NCBI GenBank assembly: GCA_977017645.1
Contig: OZ360243.1
Span: 30,876,001-30,940,000 of the forward strand
Length of the DNA stretch: 64,000 nucleotides
Direction: 5' to 3'
Source: Torpedo marmorata
Lineage: Eukaryota
Part shown: in pieces, positions 34,641 through 53,129 of the stretch
Numbering within the stretch: the first letter of the stretch is position 1
Layout: every line of letters starts with the position of its first letter
The notes under the pieces: model-generated
Told to the model about the DNA's origin: nothing
The model's database searches: none
Seen by the model: only the letters and a program-made list of their open reading frames with translations
Translations under genes and position numbers: made by a program

Positions 34641-34810
34641 TCCATATTTCCATATTCACCCTCTAAAACAGTGCAAACGCCAGTAAATGCTCTTGCTTGG
34701 GAGTCTCCCCTGATCGAGATTGCTTGGTTGCTAATGCAAATGATGAGGATAGTGTGGGATCAACGTATTTTGCCACAGGTGGGGGAGTGCATGCCTCTAG
34801 ACTCAAGAGC

Positions 34811-34888
34811 AGTGGTTTTTAAACTGCCCCCCTAAACTCACATTCCACCTTAAGCAATCCCTCTGTCATAAGTGCTCTGTGATTAGTG
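34811..34888. mobile_element. Partial copy of the hAT MITE
   Basis: cagtggtttttaaactgccccccta...aagcaatcc matches the start of 3455. Confidence 0.75.
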
Positions 34889-35242
34889 ATTTGTTATGCA
34901 TCTTTATCTTTGTTATTGATATGCCTATCAATTAGCACTCAAGAGACTATGAGAGGGTTAACCATAGGCTTTAATACACATAAAACAGACCAACAGTAGA
35001 CCTGCAGATCTCAACCGGACTGTGGGCGGAGCAGTGGCACACAGGCCTTTATTCAGTTGAGAAAAGGGGAGGGATTACCTGGACACCCAAAGGAGGGGAG
35101 AGGAGTCGCCGGGACAGACAGCAGTACATACAATACACAAACAGTGGTTTACCACATTCACCCCTCCTTTTAAAAGAGTCCAGCGGGGTGAAGTGGCCAC
35201 AATACAATCGCTACAGGAATTCAAAATACTTACAGTCATAAT

Positions 35243-37040
35243 CTACAGGTCAAGGCGATCCGGTGGTTTGGCTCGCCTTTGTGACCTGCGCAGTACCCTG
35301 GGTGCGGGTTGTGGTGCAGGGGGTACCCTGGGTGCAGGTTGTGGTGCAGGGGAAGATGGCAAGGCCGTCGCCTCCTCCTGTGGTGCTGGGTGAGATGGCA
35401 GGATTGTGGGTTCCATCGAGGGTGCCTGGTCTGACGTTGTAGAAGAGGGAATAGGGAGAGGCCGGGGCGCCAGGTCCCGAATTGAGACCATGTCCTCTCT
35501 CCCATCCGGGAAGACCACGTAGGCGTACTGCGGGTTAGCGTGCGCTAACTGCAACCTCTGGACCGCGGGCTCATATTTGCTGCTCCGGAGGTGGTTGCGG
35601 AGCAGCACCGGCCCCGGAGACGTCAGCCAGGCAGGCAGGGCGGTTCCGGTGTTCGACCTCCTGGAGAAGGAGAAAAATCTCTCATGGGGCGTTACATTGG
35701 TAGCTGTGCACAGTAAGGACCGTATCGAATGGAGGGCTTCGGGGAGAACATCTTGCCAGCGGGAAACCGGCAGTCCCCTGGACTTGAGAGCCAGGAGCGC
35801 CGCCTTCCAGACAGTGGCGTTCTCCCTTTCCACCTGTCCATTACCTCGGGGGTTGTATGCGGTGGTCCTACTAGTGGCGATGCCCCGGGTCAGCAGGAAC
35901 TGGCGCAGCTCCTCACTCATAAAAGCTGATCCCCGGTCGCTATGAATGTAGTTCGGGAAGCCGAACAGCGTAAATACCTGGCGAAGAGCTTTTATGGTTG
36001 AGGCAGCCGAAGTGTCGGGGCAGGGATTGGCGAAGGGGAACCGCGAGTACTCGTCAATAATGTTCAGAAAGTACACATTGCGGTTCGTGGAGGGAAGGGG
36101 CCCCTTGAAGTCAATGCTGAGACGTTCAAAGGGGCGAGTGGCTTTGATCAGCTGTGCCTTGTCGGGGCGGTAGAACTGGGGTTTGCACTCCGCGCAAACC
36201 CGGCAACTGCTGATCATTGTCCTGACCTCTTCCAGGGAGTATGGCAGGTTCTGTGACTTCACGAAGTGAAAGAGCCTGGTAATTCCTGGGTGGCATAGGT
36301 CGTCATGTAGGGCGTGTAATCGGTCGACCTGCGCGCTGGCGCATGATCCCCGGGATAGAGCATCGGAGGGCTCATTGAGCTTCCCGGGCCGGTACATGAT
36401 GTCGTATTTGTAGGTGGAGAGCTCTATTCTCCACCTCATGATCTTGTCATTTTTGATCTTACCCCGCTGCTGATTGTTGAACATGAATGCCACAGAGCGT
36501 TGATCTGTCAGCAGGGTAAAATGCTTACCGGCGGGATCGTGCCTCCAATGCCTGATGGCCTCCACTATGGCCTGGGCTTCCTTCTCCACCGCTGAGTGCC
36601 GAATTTCGGGGCCCTGAAGGGTTCGAGAGAAAAATGCCACCGGCCTTCCCGCCTGGTTGAGGGTAGCAGCCAGCGCGAAGTCCGATGCGTCACTCTCCAC
36701 CTGGAAAGGTGTCTCCTCATCCACTGCGTGCATTGTTGCTCGCGCAATGTCCCCTTTTATAAGGTCGAACGCCTTACGTGCCTCCGAAGCAAGGGGAAAT
36801 GCAGTGGATTTCACAAGGGGTCGGGCCTTATCCGCATAATTTGGGACCCATTGGGCATAATAGGAAAAGAACCCGAGGCATCGTTTAAGGGCTCTGGGAT
36901 TGGTGGGGAGCGGAAGTTCCAGCAGGGGCCGCATGCGTTCGGGGTCTGGTCCAATTACCCCGTTCTCGACCACATACCCCAAAATAGCGAGGCGAGTGGT
37001 ACCAAACACGCATTTTTCTTTGTTATACGTGAGGTTTAGC
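35243..37040 (-). CDS. Gypsy RT C-terminus, RNase H and integrase (after frameshift at ~37035)
   Basis: SDASDF RNase H; H..HPG..C..C zinc finger; IDFKG / SDRG / VER DDE core; no chromodomain. Confidence 0.9.
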
Positions 37041-39116
37041 CACCTGCAGGAACCTCCGGAGGTTGTTGTCATGGTCCTGACGATCATAACCACAGATGGT
37101 AATGTCGTCAAGATATGGGAAAGTGGCTTTAAGTTTGTAATGGTCCACAATCCTGTCCATCTCCCGCTGAAAAACAGAAACACCATTAGTAACACCAAAC
37201 GGAAGGCGCAGGAATTGGAACAGCCTGCCATCTGCCTCGAACGCGGTGTATGAACGGTCCTCCCGACGGATAGGGAGCTGGTGATATGCCGATTTCAAGT
37301 CGATGGTGGAAAAGAGACGGTATTGGGCAATTTGGTTCACCATCTCCGCTATCCGTGGTAGCGGGTATGCATCTAGTAGCGTAAACCTGTTAATGGTTTG
37401 GCTGTAGTCCACCACCATTCTGCTCTTGGCCCCTTTTACAACAACCACCTGGGCTCTCCAGGGACTATTACTCTTCTCTATAATCCCTTCCTGTAGCAAT
37501 CTCTGTACCTCCGTCTTGATAAATGCTCTGTCCTCGGCACTGTAACGCCTGCTTTTAGTTGCCACAGGCCTACAGTCCGGGGTCAGGTTCGCAAACAATG
37601 ACGGAGGCGAGATCTTAAGGGTGGAGAGACCACAGGTGGTTTCGGGCGTGCTATCCAGAAACTGGTGGTTGACTACAGTGATCGCGGGGAGAGGACCGTC
37701 ATACCGCATTGTAACGCTCTGCAAATGGCTTTGAAAATCCAAACCCAGTAACACCGGCGCACACAAACGGTTCATGACAAACAAGGAAAATTGCCGGTAC
37801 TCAGTCCCTTGTACCACAATGTTCGCCACACACGCCCCCCGGATGTCTGTTGTGTGGGACCCCGACGCCATGGCCACCCTCTGGCTTACCGGTACGATCG
37901 TTAGGCCACAGCGTTGAACAGTATCCGGGTGGATAAAGCTCTCAGTGCTGCCAGTGTCGAATAAACACGTTATCTTGTGTCCCTCGACCAGTATGTCCAT
38001 CATAGATCGTGCCAGCTGGTGGGGAACGTTCTGGTCGAGGGTGATGGATGCCAAAGTTGGGGTGAAGTCGTCTTGGTCCGAGGTCTTTAAAAATGGCCGC
38101 TCCCGTGGGTTGCACGTGTCGCTGGAGGTCTCTGTACAAAATGGCGGCGCCGGAAGTGCAGGAAGTAACGAGGTACGGCTCTGAGATGGCGGCGCCGGAA
38201 GTGCCAGCATGAAAGATGGCCGCTTCCACTCTTCACACGCGGTCGGCGCCGGAAGTGCCAGTCTGCAAGATGGCCGCTCCCATCTCTCGCACGCGGCACT
38301 ACTCGGGCCCGCGCGCGGCTTGGAGCGGCAGGCCTTCGCGAAGTGGCCTTTCTTGCCGCAGTTGGAACAAGTCGCGTCGCGGGCTGGGCAGCGTTTCCTC
38401 GTATGCTTGTCGAGCCCGCAGAAGTAGCACTTCTCGGGCTCGCGATTAACAGCTGCGGCGGTGAGAGTAGCGTCGGTAGCGGTCGGGTCGCGGGTAGCGG
38501 CGGCAACAATTGGGTCGCGGGCCACAGTTGGATCGGTGGGGCTGGGGAACGGGGCGATCCACGCATTAGCCTGGGGGTCCCGCGTCTGCATCGCGTCGGA
38601 GTTCTGCAGCGCGGACTCCAGCGTGCGAACCATCGCCACCGCAGAACGGAGATCGAGGTCAGAGTGCTCCAGCAGTCGCTGACGTACGTATACTGACCTC
38701 ATCCCCATAATAAAGGTGTCCCTCTCCAGCAGATCAACATGTTGTTCTTCAGTCAGCGCTTTACAGGCGCACGCTCGCACTAGGGACTGAATGTCCCTGA
38801 CAAAGTCCACTATTGACTCCCCGGCCCGCTGTTTTCGTAACGATAGTCTATACCTCGCGTAGACCTCATTAACAGGGGTCACATAGATCTTTCTCAGTGC
38901 CTCCATCGCCTCGTCGTACGTCCCACATTTCCAGATGTTTGAATACAACCGAGGGCTTACCCTAGATACTAGGACCTCTAGTTTCTGCTCGTCGCTTTCG
39001 GCTTTGACCTCCTTTGAGAACGATCGGAGGCAGCGTAGCCAGTGTTCGAATGCATGGCCAGCATCAGGAGCTAAAGGGTCGATGTCCAGTCTGTCCGGTC
39101 GGAGGGCGCCTTCCAT
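37023..39116 (-). CDS. Gypsy Gag-protease-RT (first part of a frameshifted polyprotein)
   Basis: Zn knuckle CSNCGKKGHFAKAC; LFDTGS protease; YPLP, LPFG, YLDD RT motifs. Confidence 0.9.
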   Translation of the reverse strand: MEGALRPDRLDIDPLAPDAGHAFEHWLRCLRSFSKEVKAESDEQKLEVLVSRVSPRLYSNIWKCGTYDEAMEALRKIYVTPVNEVYARYRLSLRKQRAGESIVDFVRDIQSLVRACACKALTEEQHVDLLERDTFIMGMRSVYVRQRLLEHSDLDLRSAVAMVRTLESALQNSDAMQTRDPQANAWIAPFPSPTDPTVARDPIVAAATRDPTATDATLTAAAVNREPEKCYFCGLDKHTRKRCPARDATCSNCGKKGHFAKACRSKPRAGPSSAACERWERPSCRLALPAPTACEEWKRPSFMLALPAPPSQSRTSLLPALPAPPFCTETSSDTCNPRERPFLKTSDQDDFTPTLASITLDQNVPHQLARSMMDILVEGHKITCLFDTGSTESFIHPDTVQRCGLTIVPVSQRVAMASGSHTTDIRGACVANIVVQGTEYRQFSLFVMNRLCAPVLLGLDFQSHLQSVTMRYDGPLPAITVVNHQFLDSTPETTCGLSTLKISPPSLFANLTPDCRPVATKSRRYSAEDRAFIKTEVQRLLQEGIIEKSNSPWRAQVVVVKGAKSRMVVDYSQTINRFTLLDAYPLPRIAEMVNQIAQYRLFSTIDLKSAYHQLPIRREDRSYTAFEADGRLFQFLRLPFGVTNGVSVFQREMDRIVDHYKLKATFPYLDDITICGYDRQDHDNNLRRFLQVAKPHV

Positions 39117-39444
39117 AATTTTTCTTATGTGTATTAAATTGATATGCCTATCAATTAGCACTCAAGAGACTATGAGAGGGTTAACGAACCATAGGCTTTA
39201 ATACACATAAAACAGACCAACAGTAGACCTGCAGATCTCGACCGGATTGTGGGCGGAGCAGTGGCACACAGTCCTTTATTCAGTTGAGAAAAGGGGAGGG
39301 ATTACCTGGACACCCAAAGGAGGGGAGAGGAGTCGCCGGGACAGACAGCAGTACATACAATACACAAACAGTGGTTTACCACAGTTATATAAAGTACACT
39401 GTTTGACCAGCTGAGTTTCTCCAGCATTGTATTTTTATTTTAAT

Positions 39445-39880
39445 CCAAGTAAACCTCTCCTGTACCCTTTCCAAAGCCTCCACATCCTTTCTCTAAAGGG
39501 GCTATGTTAAAATGAGACCTAACCTCTAAAGAACAGAGGCCCAAACTATTCTCTCCTCCAATGACAAACCTGCAATCCCTGAAAATAATACAGTGAATCT
39601 TCTCTGCACTCCCTATATGGCAAGGATATCACTTCATAAGGAGACCAAAACTATGCCCCTGATTTTGTCACTCCAGCACCCTAAACAATTATAATATGAC
39701 ATCCTTACTCTGTAATCAAACCCACTCATAATCAAGGCTAATAAAATATTTGCCTTCCTAATGGCTTGCTGCACCTGCATGTTGGCCTTCAGCGACACTT
39801 ATACAAGCGTACCTAGGACACTGTTAACATCTGTACTACCCCATCTCTCACCATTTAACAAATACTCTGCTTTTCTGTGA
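39445..39880 (-). mobile_element. Decayed CR1 fragment
   Basis: KAEYLLNGE..LGTLV peptide on the minus strand. Confidence 0.55.
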
Positions 39881-46312: not shown

Positions 46313-47515
46313 CCTATTGTAAGGATACATAAAAATTGCTCTTGTGGCAATGCAATCTTTTGCAGCGCCATGTCCCTTGAAAATTCCATTCCCTAGTTTT
46401 GTTCTTCTGAGACTTGTACAAGTTGGAAGATGACTGTAAGAGCCGTAGGCTCAATAACTTACCTTTGCCGTGGCGCTCCAATGCCTCGTCGGGTTGTGGA
46501 GAGCTCGCGACATTCGTAGGCCGTCCTCGGCCTGTTTGTGCTCTGCGCATGCGCTGGAGTGCCAACGGGCGCATGCGCAGTCTGTAATTGACGTCGTTGT
46601 GCGCGGTGTAGTATGGGAAATGTAGTATGCGCGGTGGAGAGTGCGCAATGGAATAGGAACATGGAGCATGCGCGAATCGGAGAGAATAGGATAAAGATGG
46701 CGACGTAGGAGGGTGAGTGAGATAGCCATATCTTTATTGACCATTTCATACAGCGTTTCATAGACATTTCAAGACGTTTCATCGATAGTTTCATTGAACT
46801 TTTAAACTAGTTATTTTGTGGTTTAAAATCGTTTATTTGAACATCTCAATACAGTCTAAGGAATCATTTAAAGGAACTCATCATACATCGTTTTCAAGAA
46901 CTGTTTGTATTGAAGTCATTGAAGATTACTGCAAGTCACGTGTGTAAATAAAGTTTTTGAACATATTGGACTTTGTTAGTAGTTTAATTGAAACTCGTCA
47001 AAGACAAGTATCTCACTTAGCCTCCAGGTGACTATTGTTAGATCGAAGTCACCATAATATAGTCAATAAAGAGCTGGATGTTTGGAACAGAAAATTGAAG
47101 GAAAGAAGATAGAATAATCTCTCTGTGCTTTGGACTGATATTTAAAATAAAATGGTGGCCATCTTGAAGATGCCTCGAGTTGGGGGCAGTTTGTAATCCA
47201 GATCCATCTGCCATGAATAGCAGCCAGAGAGGGATTTAAAGCTTCAAATCTTATAGTAAAGTATCCTATAAATACGTTGGAGAAACCATTTTTGGAAAAT
47301 CAGTGATATTATTGACGGATGTTGTGGTTGAAACTCGTTTGTGGATAGCAGCACATTACAGTCATTTGAAGTGGTAGGCATAAGTCTGTGGACTCCTTCT
47401 GTGTATCTTTGGCAAGTAAGAACACCGATTGGAATTGCTGCCGCTGGTCCATTGGGGACTGTTGTTTTGGCTAGTGTTGTGTATGCTTGAAGGACAGAGG
47501 AACAAGACGAGTAAA

Positions 47516-49300
47516 ATGGCCGCAGCAGCCTCTGATACAGCAACCGCTGATGTTGCTGTTGAGGACCAACGTATTGAAGACATGAAGATTGCGGATATTA
47601 AAGAAGAATTGAAGCGACTGAAAAAGGACATAAGTGGAAATAAAAAGTTTCTTATCGCAAGATTGAAGCTGGCAAAGGATGAAGAGGCAGCTTCATTAGA
47701 TGAACAAGAAGATAACTTGGAAATGGCTAAAATTGTGTCACCAAATGATGAAGAAAATAAAGAGGTTGAAGATGCAAAGGATATACAATTCGAATTGGAT
47801 AAAGAGGTAAGTATGAAGACAACATATGAACTGCAGGACGAAATACAAGCAAGTGACAGTGTCTCAAATGCTGAAAGCAGGAGAAGCAAAAGAACTTCTG
47901 GTTCGAGCTCCAGAGTTTCTCGTACTTCAAGTTCTGCATCGTCACGTACAAAGATTGATGTTAAATTGGCCGGTTTTCTTGCACAACAAAAAATGCTTAA
48001 GGATAAATATATTTTAGAACAAGAGGAGGAGCAGCTAAGACAAAAGGAGGAGCAGCTAAAGGAGCAGCTAAGACAAAATGAGAAGCAGCTAATGGAGCAG
48101 CTAAGACAAGAGAAGGAGCAGCTAAGGCAGAGAAAAGAACAGCAGGAGCTGGAAGCAAACATTGCTATTGCCAAGGCAGAAAAGAAAGCAATAGAAGGCT
48201 CAATAGTATCTGGCGCTCGAAGTAAATTATCTAAAGTGTCTGATAATAAAAGGTCATATTTTAAAAAAGAGTCACAGGAAAAGAAACCAACCAAAAGGGT
48301 AGTTATTTTAGAATCAAGGATACAAGATTTGCAAATACAAGGATAAATCTTTCAAGAGCATATTGGTAACGAGTCACATGTACCAATGGAAACATCTGAA
48401 AGCAAAGCTGCGTCTTGGGTTCGGTCGAACGAAGCAGCTTCTTTGTTATTTGAGTCAAGCATCAGAAATATGGAAGAAACTACACCAGTGAGGTTTCCAG
48501 ATACATTGCATGCAACAAGAGACGGTGAACAGAGCAATGTATTGTCATCCAAGGAAAGACAAAATGAAATTGCTGCATCATTGTTTCAGTTACAGTCTCT
48601 CTCTTCTTTACCCAAGAAAGAGATACAAACTTTTGATGGTGATCCACTTCAGTATCAATCATTTATGAGATCTTTCAAACGCAATATTGAAGATAAATGT
48701 CAAGATCGTGATGAATGTCTTTATTATTTGGAAATGTTCACAAAGGGACATCCAAAAGAACTGGTAAAGAATTGTAAACAAATGTCTTCAGAAAGAGGAT
48801 TAGACAAAGCTAAGGCTTTACTGGAACAATATTTTGGCAACAAGCATCGAATTGTTTTAGCTTATTTGGATAAAGCTCTTAAATGGACATCAATAAAACA
48901 AAATGATGTAAAGGCTCTGCAAGAATATACTTTGTTTTTAAGAGGATGTTGTAATGCTATGGAAGATATCGATAATATTCGTGAGCTTGAAGTGCATAGT
49001 AATATGCGAATCATCTTAGAAAAATTACCTTACAAGTTATGGGATAGATAGAGAAATTTGGCTTGTGATTTACAAGTAAATTACGGTCGAAAAGTTACCT
49101 TAAAGGATTTGGTAAATTTTCTTGAATGACAGGTGTACGTTGAAACAGATCCACTATTTGGAAATACCAGAGATAATTCAATGGGCAAAGATGTAAGGAA
49201 GTCTAATTCACAGCCTAGTCCGAAATTAAAAAGGAGTACTTTTGCTACTAATGTGTCAGTTATAAGTAAAGAAAAGGACAAAGTAAATAAGAAAAGGAAA
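47516..49300 (+). pseudogene. SAP-domain N-terminus plus BEL Gag (in-frame stops at ~48344, 49049, 49127; frameshift at ~49300)
   Basis: SAP motif 47573-47665; EQLRQ repeats; FDGDPLQY...LYYLEMFTKG BEL Gag signature; ORF pieces share one frame. Confidence 0.82.
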
Positions 49301-49302
49301 GT

Positions 49303-51318
49303 TTGCCTGATGAAAAGAGTTGTTTGTTCTGTAAAGGTGGACATACTTTGGAAATGTGTTTACGATTGGAAAAGAAGGAACATAAGGAGAAGATCGCTTT
49401 CTTAAAGGAAAATGGAATATGTTTTAGCTGTCTGTGTAAAGGGCACATCAGTAAAAACTGCGAAAAGCGAATTAATTGTAACATATGCAATTTGAAACAT
49501 CCTAGAATTTTGCATATCCATAACAGAAACAAGGAATTGGAAAAGGAGCAAACAGAAAGAAAGGAAACAACAGAAAATAATGTTATAACCTCGGTTCAGA
49601 CAAGTGGTCTTACCGGGGCCGGTGTGGATAACTGCAAACTTTCGATAGTGCCTGTACAAGTCAAGACCAAGAAAGGGGATGCAATAGTAAAAACATATGC
49701 ATTTCTAGACCCAGGCAGCACTGCATCTTTTTGCACGGAAGGACTAATGAATAAACTTAATATTCAAGGAAGAAGATCAAGAATTATGTTAAAAACCATG
49801 GGACAAGAAAAGGTCGTTGAAACTAGCATTGTTTCAGGCTTAGAGGTTGCTGGATTATATGACAAAAAATTTTGTGATCTTCCAAGTTTATATACTCAGA
49901 AGACTATGCCTGTACATGAAGGAAATATTCCTCATCAAAAGGATATCCATCATTTAGCTTATCTGTGGAAGGTTTATTTACCTGAAATTAATTCTGAGAT
50001 AGAAATGATGATTGGTTCAGATGTGCCAAAGGTTTTGGAACCGAAAGAAGTAATACAGTGTAAAAGGAATGGACCTTACGCTATTAGAACCAAGTTTGGT
50101 TGGACAATCAATGGACCATTGGAAAGAAATAATGATATTGCTCAGGAACAGTTAGCAATAAATATTAATAGAATTTCGGTTGTGAAAGTTGAAGAGTTAA
50201 GCGAAGAGCAAAAAACCGTGAATAAGAAAATCACTTTTGAAGAAAAGAAAACAGATCAATGTGAAAATAAATCAAGGGTATTTAAAACAACATTGAAGGA
50301 ATTATTTTTACCAAAAATGGATGAAAGTGAAGTATTAGAAGATGTTGCAAATAATACTATTGATTGTTCATGTGTAATCAAATCAGATACAGGAATAAAA
50401 CAAGTGACTGAAAACAAATCTGAATGTAGATTTTGTAGTTCAGAGATTACAATAGACAAAGCTAATGAAGAAATATTGCAATGTGATGTAAAACTGGAGA
50501 ACGCGGAAAATTGTGCTGATGGAATAAAGAATAATGTGAATGATAATTTAATGCAATTGAATTCAGAGAACAAAATGTTGAAAGGGGAATTGGAAATATT
50601 AGATAATCATGAAAACAGTAAACAGAAAGATTTAATTGTAAGTAAAACTCGCAAAGTCAGAAAGCGGAAGAAAAGAATAACTGCTGAAGAAATGAATACA
50701 GTTATTGAGGAAAGAGATTCAGCATTATCAAAATGTAAAAGGTTGGAGGAAGAGATTAATGTTTTGAAAGAGAACAAGTTATTGGTTAATAACACAAAAC
50801 AGTTGACTTTAAAAACCAATCAAGAATGTAAATTGAATGTTCAACAATTAACAATGCAGAAAGAATGTGATATTGCATTGCAGAAATGTAACAAGCAAGA
50901 TGAAGAAATTAAAAAATTTCAAGTTTGCCGCAGCAGGATTAACAATGGAAATATCAATGTATCACATGATATTTTGACTTCAGATCAAATTATTAATTTC
51001 TCAGAAAGAACTGAGACTGAATTGAAAGTTGCAAAATTGGATTTGGAATTGCAGGAAAGAGCAATAGAAACCAGAGTGGTTAAACAGACCTGTTTAAAAT
51101 CGAAAGGATCAAATAAATATTCAAATTCTAGTTCTAAGAGTTTAAATTCTTCACACGAGAAGTGGAATGCTGAAGAAAGGAATAAAGTGAAACGACATGC
51201 TGAAGAAGTGCCTCGTGTTAAATTCAAAAGGAAAACTGTATCTATTTTGTCTGAGGAAGATTTGAGGTTTACTGGTCGACGTTTTAACTCAAAGATTATG
51301 GAGATAAAAGAACTTTAA
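49303..51318 (+). CDS. BEL Zn knuckles, aspartic protease and MIPOL1-like coiled coil
   Basis: CLFC..H..C, CFSC..GH..C, CNIC..H..H; YAFLDPGS protease; RITAEEMNTVIEERDSALSKCKRLEEE; 671 open codons. Confidence 0.8.
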   Translation: MPDEKSCLFCKGGHTLEMCLRLEKKEHKEKIAFLKENGICFSCLCKGHISKNCEKRINCNICNLKHPRILHIHNRNKELEKEQTERKETTENNVITSVQTSGLTGAGVDNCKLSIVPVQVKTKKGDAIVKTYAFLDPGSTASFCTEGLMNKLNIQGRRSRIMLKTMGQEKVVETSIVSGLEVAGLYDKKFCDLPSLYTQKTMPVHEGNIPHQKDIHHLAYLWKVYLPEINSEIEMMIGSDVPKVLEPKEVIQCKRNGPYAIRTKFGWTINGPLERNNDIAQEQLAININRISVVKVEELSEEQKTVNKKITFEEKKTDQCENKSRVFKTTLKELFLPKMDESEVLEDVANNTIDCSCVIKSDTGIKQVTENKSECRFCSSEITIDKANEEILQCDVKLENAENCADGIKNNVNDNLMQLNSENKMLKGELEILDNHENSKQKDLIVSKTRKVRKRKKRITAEEMNTVIEERDSALSKCKRLEEEINVLKENKLLVNNTKQLTLKTNQECKLNVQQLTMQKECDIALQKCNKQDEEIKKFQVCRSRINNGNINVSHDILTSDQIINFSERTETELKVAKLDLELQERAIETRVVKQTCLKSKGSNKYSNSSSKSLNSSHEKWNAEERNKVKRHAEEVPRVKFKRKTVSILSEEDLRFTGRRFNSKIMEIKEL

Positions 51319-51319
51319 A

Positions 51320-51501
51320 GAGACATTGTGATTATTATGGATAATTCAACTTCAAGAAACTCCTGGTTACTTGGAAAAATTATTGAGACTTTTCAAGACA
51401 AAAGGGGACTTGTGCGTCAAGTGTGAATTAAAACTAAGTCTGGTTTTCTAAATAGACCTATTAACAAGGTTTGTCTTTTGTTGGAGACGGAGGAACTTTG
51501 A
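51320..51501 (+). pseudogene. Vestigial BEL integrase C-terminus (DUF5641-like)
   Basis: DIVIIMDNSTSRNSWLLGKIIETFQDKRGLVRQV*IKTKSGFLNRPINKVCLL. Confidence 0.8.
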
Positions 51502-53129
51502 TAAATACAAAACTGACTTTATTTGTTGTTGTATACTTCACAGGTTACAGACTTGTTGATTCAGAGTTATGGTAAACTCTAGTTTTATGAAGAAGGAAGA
51601 AAGAAGATTTGTATATTGTTTGAATGTTATAGTTATTGTTATTTATAATTTAGTGTGTAATTATTATTTAAGACATTGTGTCTAATTATAATAATTAGGG
51701 GCCGGTGTAAGAGCCGTAGGCTCAATAACTTACCTTTGCCGCGGCGCTCCAATGCCTCGTCGGGTTGTGGAGAGCTCGCGACATTCGTAGGCCGTCCTCG
51801 GCCTGTTTGTGCTCTGCGCATGCGCTGGAGTGCCGACGGTCGAATGCGCAGTCTGAAATTGACGTCGTTGTGCGCGGTGTAGTATGGGAAATGTAGTATG
51901 CGCGGTGGAGAGTGCGCAATGGAATAGGAACATGGAGCATGCGCGAATCGGAGAGAATAGGATAAAGATGGCGACGTAGGAGGGTGAGTGAGATTGCCAT
52001 ATCTTTATTGACCGTTTCATACAGCGTTTCATAGACATTTCAAGACGTTTCATAGATAGTTTCATTGAATTTTTAAACTAGTTATTTTGTGGTTTAAAAT
52101 CGTTTATTTGAACATCTCAATACAGTCTAAGGAATCATTTAAAGGAACTCATCATACATCGTTTTCAAGAACTGTTTGTATTGAAGTCATTGAAGATTAC
52201 TGCAAGTCACGTGTGTAAATAAAGTTTTTGAACATATTAGACTTTGTTAGTAGTTTAATTGAAACGCGTCAAAGACAAGTATCTCACTTAGCCTCCAGGT
52301 GACTATTGTTGGATCGAAGTCACCATAATAATGACCGTCTGCCCTCAGCTAACTGTTTACTAAAGCGCTGCGGCTTGATCTGGAACCTTTCCATAATGCT
52401 TTATGGATCGCAGAATAGTATCGCTATGCTCAGCAATCTAATGTTGAGGTTATTTAAAAGCTGAATTAAAATGCTGGTTTGAAAAGGAACTTCCCTGGCT
52501 ACTGGCTAACCAACCATTCTTTCACGGGCCTTCTTTGGTACGTAGTTTCAGAAGTCTTTTGAGTACTCTGCTGCCACGGAGCCACCAAATGTTATTGTGG
52601 TCCAGAACATCGCTGCACTGAACATCATTTTCTTCCAAGTAACGTTGGAATACTCTGTGGTTGAGTTCATGAACTCGAATGAAATTTACTGTCAACATCA
52701 GTTTCATACCATAATCAAAATCTAGTGCCTTTCCACAAAGCGCCTGTTGATATATAATGCAATTGATTTTGCTATGCCCGTTGATTTTCGATGGCTATTA
52801 ATTATTCCTATCATTAATATTTTATCCATCGTGTCGCTTGCGCTGTCTGTGGTAACACGTTTAGAGTTTCTCGTTTTAAATCCAGAAGCTGGAATATATT
52901 GTCGACGTTTATTAAAATGTCTGTCTTTGTAACAGTGTAGTTAATAGGATACAGCCCCGCCAGTTTCTTGGTACCTGTATATGAATACAAGCAACTCTAC
53001 CCTGTCAACAATGTTTTACATTCAAAGTAACAAAAAGAGACATAAAAACTTGGGTGTACACTTGTTATTGTGTCAACTGATCATCACCTAAATTTTTGCT
53101 TCCACTGACTGGTAACTGCCTAAACCAGC

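Follow-up and report, generated by a model that had tools for sequence, protein, structure and literature searches.

The Gypsy element at 34917–39383 (minus strand) of the window analysed here, a 64,000-nt stretch of Torpedo marmorata contig OZ360243.1, raises the question of how its reverse transcription is primed, since a complement of its own LTR stands at the primer-binding-site position. An earlier note, made from the sequence alone, had offered self-priming, a hairpin hiding the poly(A) signal of the 5′ LTR, or both. All positions are those of the window, and the features of the element are listed in sense order.

39384–39388, minus strand: target-site duplication, upstream copy, 5 bp
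39140–39383, minus strand: 5′ LTR, 244 nt, TG...CA
39275–39280, minus strand: AATAAA, second hexamer, in the LTR upstream of the arm
39197–39210, minus strand: LTR arm, putative self-primer; 14 of 14 Watson-Crick pairs, pairing reaching 39212
39197–39202, minus strand: ATTAAA, poly(A)-signal-like hexamer at the 3′ end of the arm
39191–39196, minus strand: second helix, 5′ strand, beginning directly 3′ of the arm; pair probability 0.76–0.84
39146–39151, minus strand: second helix, 3′ strand, partner of 39196–39191
39139, minus strand: spacer base A, the sole base between LTR and primer site
39125–39138, minus strand: primer-binding-site position, complement of the LTR arm, without TGG; pairing reaching 39123
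37023–39116, minus strand: gag, protease and first part of RT (P0001, 697 aa), with two CCHC-type knuckles (Pfam); ends at the frame break
35243–37030, minus strand: rest of RT, RNase H and integrase (P0002), in another frame; start approximate (Pfam)
35157–35171, minus strand: polypurine tract, abutting the 3′ LTR; alike in relatives
34917–35156, minus strand: 3′ LTR, 240 nt, TG...CA; second arm copy at 34983–34970
34912–34916, minus strand: target-site duplication, downstream copy, 5 bp, identical 5-mer

The element and its primer-site position

The 5′ and 3′ LTRs differ by 3 substitutions and one 4-nt indel. As they are nearly identical and the same 5-mer stands on both flanks, the insertion is young. 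The frame of the element is broken near 37030 in RT, just past the catalytic motif, despite LTRs about 98% alike. The order gag, protease, RT, RNase H, integrase (Pfam) is that of Ty3/gypsy elements, and the best match among solved structures was Ty3 Gag-Pol (E 7.6e-32). Four motifs that we take to be the acidic motifs of RNase H were all readable in P0002. Chromodomain PF00385 was found neither in P0002 by Pfam, which upholds the earlier description of a Gypsy lacking this domain, nor among the precomputed domains of the 12 closest polyproteins.

The sense strand at 39138–39125 was the exact reverse complement of 39210–39197, with 14/14 Watson-Crick pairs and a single A (39139) between the tract and the 5′ LTR, as had been claimed; ATTAAA was likewise located at 39202–39197. 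A G·U pair and an A-U pair on its outer side lengthen the helix to 16 bp. The 23-nt leader from the LTR to the gag ATG (39116) holds no TGG, in agreement with the earlier statement that no TGG-type site precedes gag. A perfect 14-mer match was expected 1.2e-6 times by chance. When the LTR was shuffled (n = 20,000), the longest matched prefix was 11, against 14 observed, and 12 was reached in none of the shuffles. Folding of 39240–39100 gave z = -3.47, with equal stability in 2 of 200 shuffles, and arm/primer-site pair probabilities were 0.86–1.0 for all three start points folded. No tRNA genes were detected within the 64-kb window, and no Rfam match in 34800–39500 at E up to 1.

Three further observations concern the element and its surroundings. 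The end of the purine tract (35157–35163, minus strand) was nearly constant before the LTR TG across families; this suggests a fixed plus-strand start, which may mirror the one-base spacer at the opposite end. The canonical AATAAA upstream of the arm, absent from the earlier note and not a regular feature among relatives, is followed by bases resembling the post-arm bases of other families, and 39280–39269 (minus strand) looks as if it were a relic module of arm plus helix; its match to the primer site stops at four bases. The window is rich in non-LTR and other retroelements, in the manner of an animal genome. A BEL/Pao element at 46435–52330 (plus strand) has 625-nt LTRs, a 5-bp duplication and no TGG after its 5′ LTR. 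Its primer-site position matches two LTR tracts, over 6 nt at 47029–47034 (two bases after CAG) and over 11 nt at 46731–46741 (from offset 2), and its first ORF (47420–48346, plus strand) matched the SAP domain weakly, narrowly below the cut-off (E 4.4e-5).

Relatives and covariation of the paired tracts

Relatives were fetched with an alignment of 13 polyproteins, yielding the best 80 of 524 confirmed metagenome loci and 8 genome-contig loci. Of these 88 loci, 27 had no gag start, and 58 with at least 60 nt upstream were scanned together with the window, giving 59 rows. Fifty-eight rows were placed in register and formed 29 clusters, of which 26, the window's among them, pair. For L029, L053 and L086 the junction of LTR and leader was found at the other end of a collapsed contig and pairs there, finally yielding 29 representatives. 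Not among the 29 are L021, whose arm stands where the 3′ LTR is cut off and agrees with 12 nt of the leader, L022 and L079, whose contigs offer no 5′ LTR arm that could be used, and L088, with gag at the edge of its contig. Each cluster was represented by its best-paired copy, and the register search favoured Watson-Crick pairs. An LTR-like repeat in 24 loci allowed the LTR ends to be checked independently, and 10 of these loci had an exact 5-bp duplication at the same CA; L013 and L014 share flanks, and several others failed on the automatic LTR start or on truncation.

Polyproteins of relatives were 1220–1270 aa long. The closest named ones, known as proteins alone, were from Narcine bancroftii (79% identity along the RT stretch), from Trichuris suis and from Loxostege sticticalis. 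Elements of the clade at L083–L090 lay on contigs filed under bacterial genome bins, which are probably stray host DNA. In L020, L023, L027, L028, L029, L032, L053, L083, L084 and L086 the end of pol is followed on the contig by a single LTR, the primer site and gag; such contigs are either collapsed assemblies or true tandem elements sharing one LTR. Two weak zinc-knuckle matches on viral contigs (L001 and L002) were dropped, no true relatives being found among these contigs.

The earlier note had looked to related families for the pairing and for its covariation, and both were found across the clade. The 29 representatives carry 29 distinct primer-site 13-mers, none of which starts with TGG. 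Counted from the LTR side, positions 1–9 pair in 29/29 families and positions 10, 11, 12 and 13 in 27, 27, 28 and 26 of them. An arm matched its own site at 12.72 of 13 bases, compared with 7.80 across families; at least 12 matches were reached in 27/29 own and 10/812 cross comparisons. All four Watson-Crick pair types occur at positions 5, 7, 8, 9, 11, 12 and 13. Pairing stood above the cross-family level through position 15 and not from position 16 (binomial test, with p values that are too small because the families are related).

The register is equally constrained. The spacer is one base in 28 of the 29 families (A in 25, T in 3), and in none (0/29) could the helix be extended inward by a Watson-Crick pair. 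The gag ATG lies 16–78 nt away and the loop measures 23–65 nt, so the register is tied to the LTR end and to neither of these. Among the 24 loci with an LTR-like repeat, primer-site sequence was not seen to be kept past the 3′ LTR where the 3′ end is on the contig.

No G·U pair was present at positions 1–12 of the representatives (0/348 cells), compared with 15/108 pairs in a second helix described below, a contrast that is partly built in, since the best-paired copies were chosen, the register search favoured Watson-Crick matches and G·U was permitted in scoring the second helix. Over all copies, G·U occurred in 7/660 cells, 4 of them in the decayed copies L061 and L073. Individual copies paired at 10 or more of 12 positions in 53 of 55 cases; pairing was lost in L061, and 9/12 pairs were kept in L073.

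Families also showed two-sided swaps among their own copies: at position 7 between L017 and the L009 group, at position 9 between L003 and L007 or L023, and at position 7 between L050 and L063. Contigs from two runs carried close relatives of the window family. In run X4, 39204 and 39131 were both changed, turning G-C into A-T (one contig for each change, at the depth of a contig spanning both). In run X1, 39131 alone was changed, giving G·U at position 8.

Throughout the clade, then, the primer-site position is the Watson-Crick complement of 13–15 nt of the own LTR and keeps its register at one base beyond the LTR end. Strict complementarity is expected if the site is re-copied from the primer in every cycle, and strict, register-fixed and covarying complementarity is the pattern to be expected of a site that the element renews from its own RNA. 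On this comparison the signature is real and clade-wide, and most likely one of self-priming. Self-priming by one route or another is considered highly probable.

Proposed priming route and its alternatives

A second helix adjoins the primer duplex. The bases directly after the arm are GCC or ACC in 24/29 families, and an anchored second helix of at least 4 bp was found in 23 (null mean 7.0, maximum 14, in 2,000 shuffles keeping the first four bases). As this helix starts right after the arm, the cut is placed at the junction of the two helices; from the fixed register in 29 families, we infer a position between 39197 and 39196 in the window element.

Tf1 provides the template for the route proposed. 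According to the available text of the sources, its RNA is annealed to the primer site by its first 11 bases, with RNase H cleaving between positions 11 and 12 (PMC7175516), the primer is copied into the cDNA end (PMC11042837), and three duplexes are required (PMC10085805). By analogy, the transcript of the present element would start at or close to the arm's 5′ end, and the arm would fold back on the primer site. The element's RNase H would then cut at the junction of primer duplex and second helix, and the freed 3′-OH would prime minus-strand DNA over the spacer at 39139 and the last 57 nt of the LTR. Later plus-strand synthesis would copy the primer, so that every cycle would rewrite the primer site from the arm. 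In most families the primer's final six bases would double as a poly(A) signal, hidden by the duplex in the 5′ LTR; the signal of the 3′ LTR would set the RNA end about 10–30 nt past the cut site and provide the overlap for the first strand transfer. Poly(A) sites commonly lie 10–30 nt past their hexamer. Since the first strand transfer needs overlap, the RNA must end downstream of the arm in the 3′ LTR; were the upstream AATAAA the signal in use, the RNA would stop short of the arm and the route would lack this overlap. The predictions for the window element are a cap site near 39212–39209, a cut at 39197/39196 and a poly(A) site about 10–30 nt past the hexamer in the 3′ LTR.

The stop of pairing after position 15 fits a short primer. 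A start at the arm is weakened by the promoter search: no suitably placed TATA box was found ahead of the arm, TATA[AT]A occurring within 150 nt in 3/29 families at 65–75 nt from the arm end. A motif resembling a splice acceptor (pyrimidine tract and YAG) was found 18–30 nt before the 3′ end of the arm in 6/29 LTRs (L050, L060, L065, L071, L029 and L086; no control set), and would move the start further upstream. By eye, similar motifs were noted in L021, L028 and L070. A reading of the arm as initiator-like, position 11 being A in 17/29, was set aside, as pairing continues to positions 13–15. A third duplex was sought for the sequence after the primer site, with the loop and the LTR stretch upstream of the arm as partners, and none was found (longest helix 5.07 own, 4.83 cross). 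The absence of this third Tf1 duplex was counted against the route, as were the G·U pair in X1, the lost pairing in L061 and the 9/12 pairs in L073. With these points included, Tf1-like self-primed reverse transcription by the route described is held to be fairly probable.

The primer might instead be supplied by the arm of the 3′ LTR, the RNA circularising, by the arm of a second packaged RNA, by a separate short LTR transcript, or by an arm within a longer, possibly spliced, 5′ exon. The arm is present in both LTRs (at 34983–34970 as well), and sequence cannot tell which copy pairs; the poly(A)-type hexamer at the arm end in 17/29 families, the lack of a promoter motif at the arm and the acceptor-like motifs 18–30 nt upstream in 6/29 would also suit such sources. 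They are nevertheless thought unlikely, because complementarity ends at positions 13–16, where a long primer gives no natural stop, because the 5′ copy of the arm is just 24–66 nt from the primer site, with a predicted pairing probability near 1, and because the conserved second helix sits between the two.

A purely structural hairpin, hiding the poly(A) signal of the 5′ LTR or controlling gag translation or packaging while priming occurs otherwise, would be a further alternative. A[AT]TAAA ends the arm in 17/29 families, ATTAAA was predicted to be 0–9% unpaired in the 5′ LTR and 34–79% unpaired in the 3′ LTR, and the 3′ strand of the helix ends 2–9 nt before the gag ATG in several families, that of the window included. 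Against this, 10/29 families keep 9–19 Watson-Crick pairs with A[AT]TAAA in neither arm nor loop, and in L027 and L039 the hexamer itself has two-sided changes. Such a hairpin has no need of a start one base past the LTR (28/29) or of G·U avoidance, and it would leave the element without any primer site. A primer is preferred over a plain hairpin because the 3′ strand lies at the place where LTR elements are primed, the register is tied to the LTR end, the complement is strict and the hexamer is dispensable; the hairpin as sole function is regarded as improbable.

Of the earlier pair of readings, self-priming is favoured as the main function. Concealment of the poly(A) signal would at most come second to it, as 10/29 families pair without the hexamer. 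From the strong bias of 17/29 families, and because the hexamer is predicted to be largely paired in the 5′ LTR and less so in the 3′ LTR, such a second role beside priming is likely.

That the primer is a tRNA, a fragment of one or some other small RNA of the host, with the LTR match incidental or due to chance, draws on the half-tRNA priming without TGG that exists in some copia lineages (PMC6317226, available text) and is very hard to credit: the TGG required by a mature tRNA end is absent, chance would give the match of the window element alone at about 1e-6, and covariation already contradicts this reading, the site differing in all 29 families and tracking the own LTR. The matching tRNA 3′ end that the earlier note named as a refuting result was not found.

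Placement and comparison with known systems

The RT phylogeny proposed in the earlier note to place the clade was run as a quick tree (65 rows), together with an integrase tree (52 rows). The element and all self-pairing loci formed one group on a long stem (SH-aLRT 98 and 100). This group stood apart from six chromovirus-like rows, five with a chromodomain and one with an SH3_Tf2-1 domain alone, in these quick trees, the base of which was not resolved. In an AU test on the integrase set, grouping with the chromovirus-like rows was not rejected (p 0.83 and 0.76), and the constrained trees were likelier than the quick free tree. By its sequences the clade is a distinct lineage without a chromodomain, and it may descend from a chromovirus that lost this domain.

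Cigr-1 of Ciona has LTRs of about 245 bp and one ORF of about 3.6 kb, a size that fits the element (LTR of 244 nt; relatives of 1220–1270 aa). On this size, Cigr-1 is a candidate for the identity of the clade. In the available portions of two papers, the Cigr-1 clade is present in molluscs and annelids, and PBS has 0 occurrences there (PMC6238403, PMC8556966). Neither Cigr nor PBS is mentioned in PMC2774666, and literature searches for Cigr together with PBS were empty. RT motifs of the clade had no match in papers or in four of the five supplementary files of PMC3670739.

Taken together and as far as their text was available, published accounts tie self-priming to Tf1/sushi, Tcn1 and the TAR lineage of plant copia elements, and note unexplained priming in Skipper and in fungal GalEa elements (PMC6317226, PMC3601003, PMC4600332, PMC6934838, PMC3670739, PMC10085805, PMC7175516, PMC11042837, PMC5006619). 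Among the matches listed from the accessible full-text literature, no proposal of self-priming was found for a chromodomain-less animal Gypsy clade. Such a clade, with named relatives in ray, nematode and moth and at least 29 families carrying the signature, would widen the range of self-priming among Gypsy elements beyond the Tf1/sushi chromoviruses. It would also touch the question, raised in the available part of PMC3601003, of whether tRNA priming came late or disappeared on more than one occasion. The elements would also escape the 3′ tRNA fragments that target tRNA primer sites (PMC7472051, available text), and annotation tools requiring a tRNA site would miss or misjudge them.

In the retroviral 5′ poly(A)-signal hairpin and U5-IR stem, too, a helix hides the hexamer in the 5′ LTR alone. 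The present elements are unlike these in that retroviruses keep their tRNA primer site, whereas here the helix replaces it. They resemble the TAR lineage of plant Ty1/copia elements (Houba, Osr-1) and the Tcn1 chromoviruses, predicted self-primers by the same criterion, namely at least 10 bp of LTR complementary to a tract 0–5 bp after the 5′ LTR; the window element, with 14 bp at 1 nt, falls within it (PMC6317226, available text). TAR belongs to another superfamily and Tcn1 to a chromodomain-bearing plant clade, whereas the named relatives of the present clade come from ray, nematode and moth.

A further close likeness is to Tf1 and Tf2 of Schizosaccharomyces pombe, Tj1, Tosmo1-3 and the Tf1/sushi group generally. 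As described in the available parts of PMC10085805, PMC7175516 and PMC4600332, these share with the element the Gypsy gene order, the lack of a tRNA site, a primer site beside the 5′ LTR complementary to an LTR tract, and a further helix beside the primer duplex. The mechanism proposed is like that of Tf1, yet the element is not filed as a Tf1/sushi member: its clade lacks a chromodomain, its duplex has 13–15 bp compared with 11, and its arm mostly ends in A[AT]TAAA. In contrast to the three-duplex 'pretzel' of Tf1, two helices were found in the clade, the second often local within the LTR. A more far-reaching proposal, offered tentatively and rather doubtful as a whole, is that a widespread chromodomain-less animal Gypsy clade gained self-priming independently of Tf1/sushi and that the 3′ end of its primer is the poly(A) signal itself. 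One 13–15-nt tract would then prime, silence 5′ polyadenylation and fix the RNA 3′ end at just the downstream distance needed for strand transfer, with the cut set by a conserved two-helix junction.
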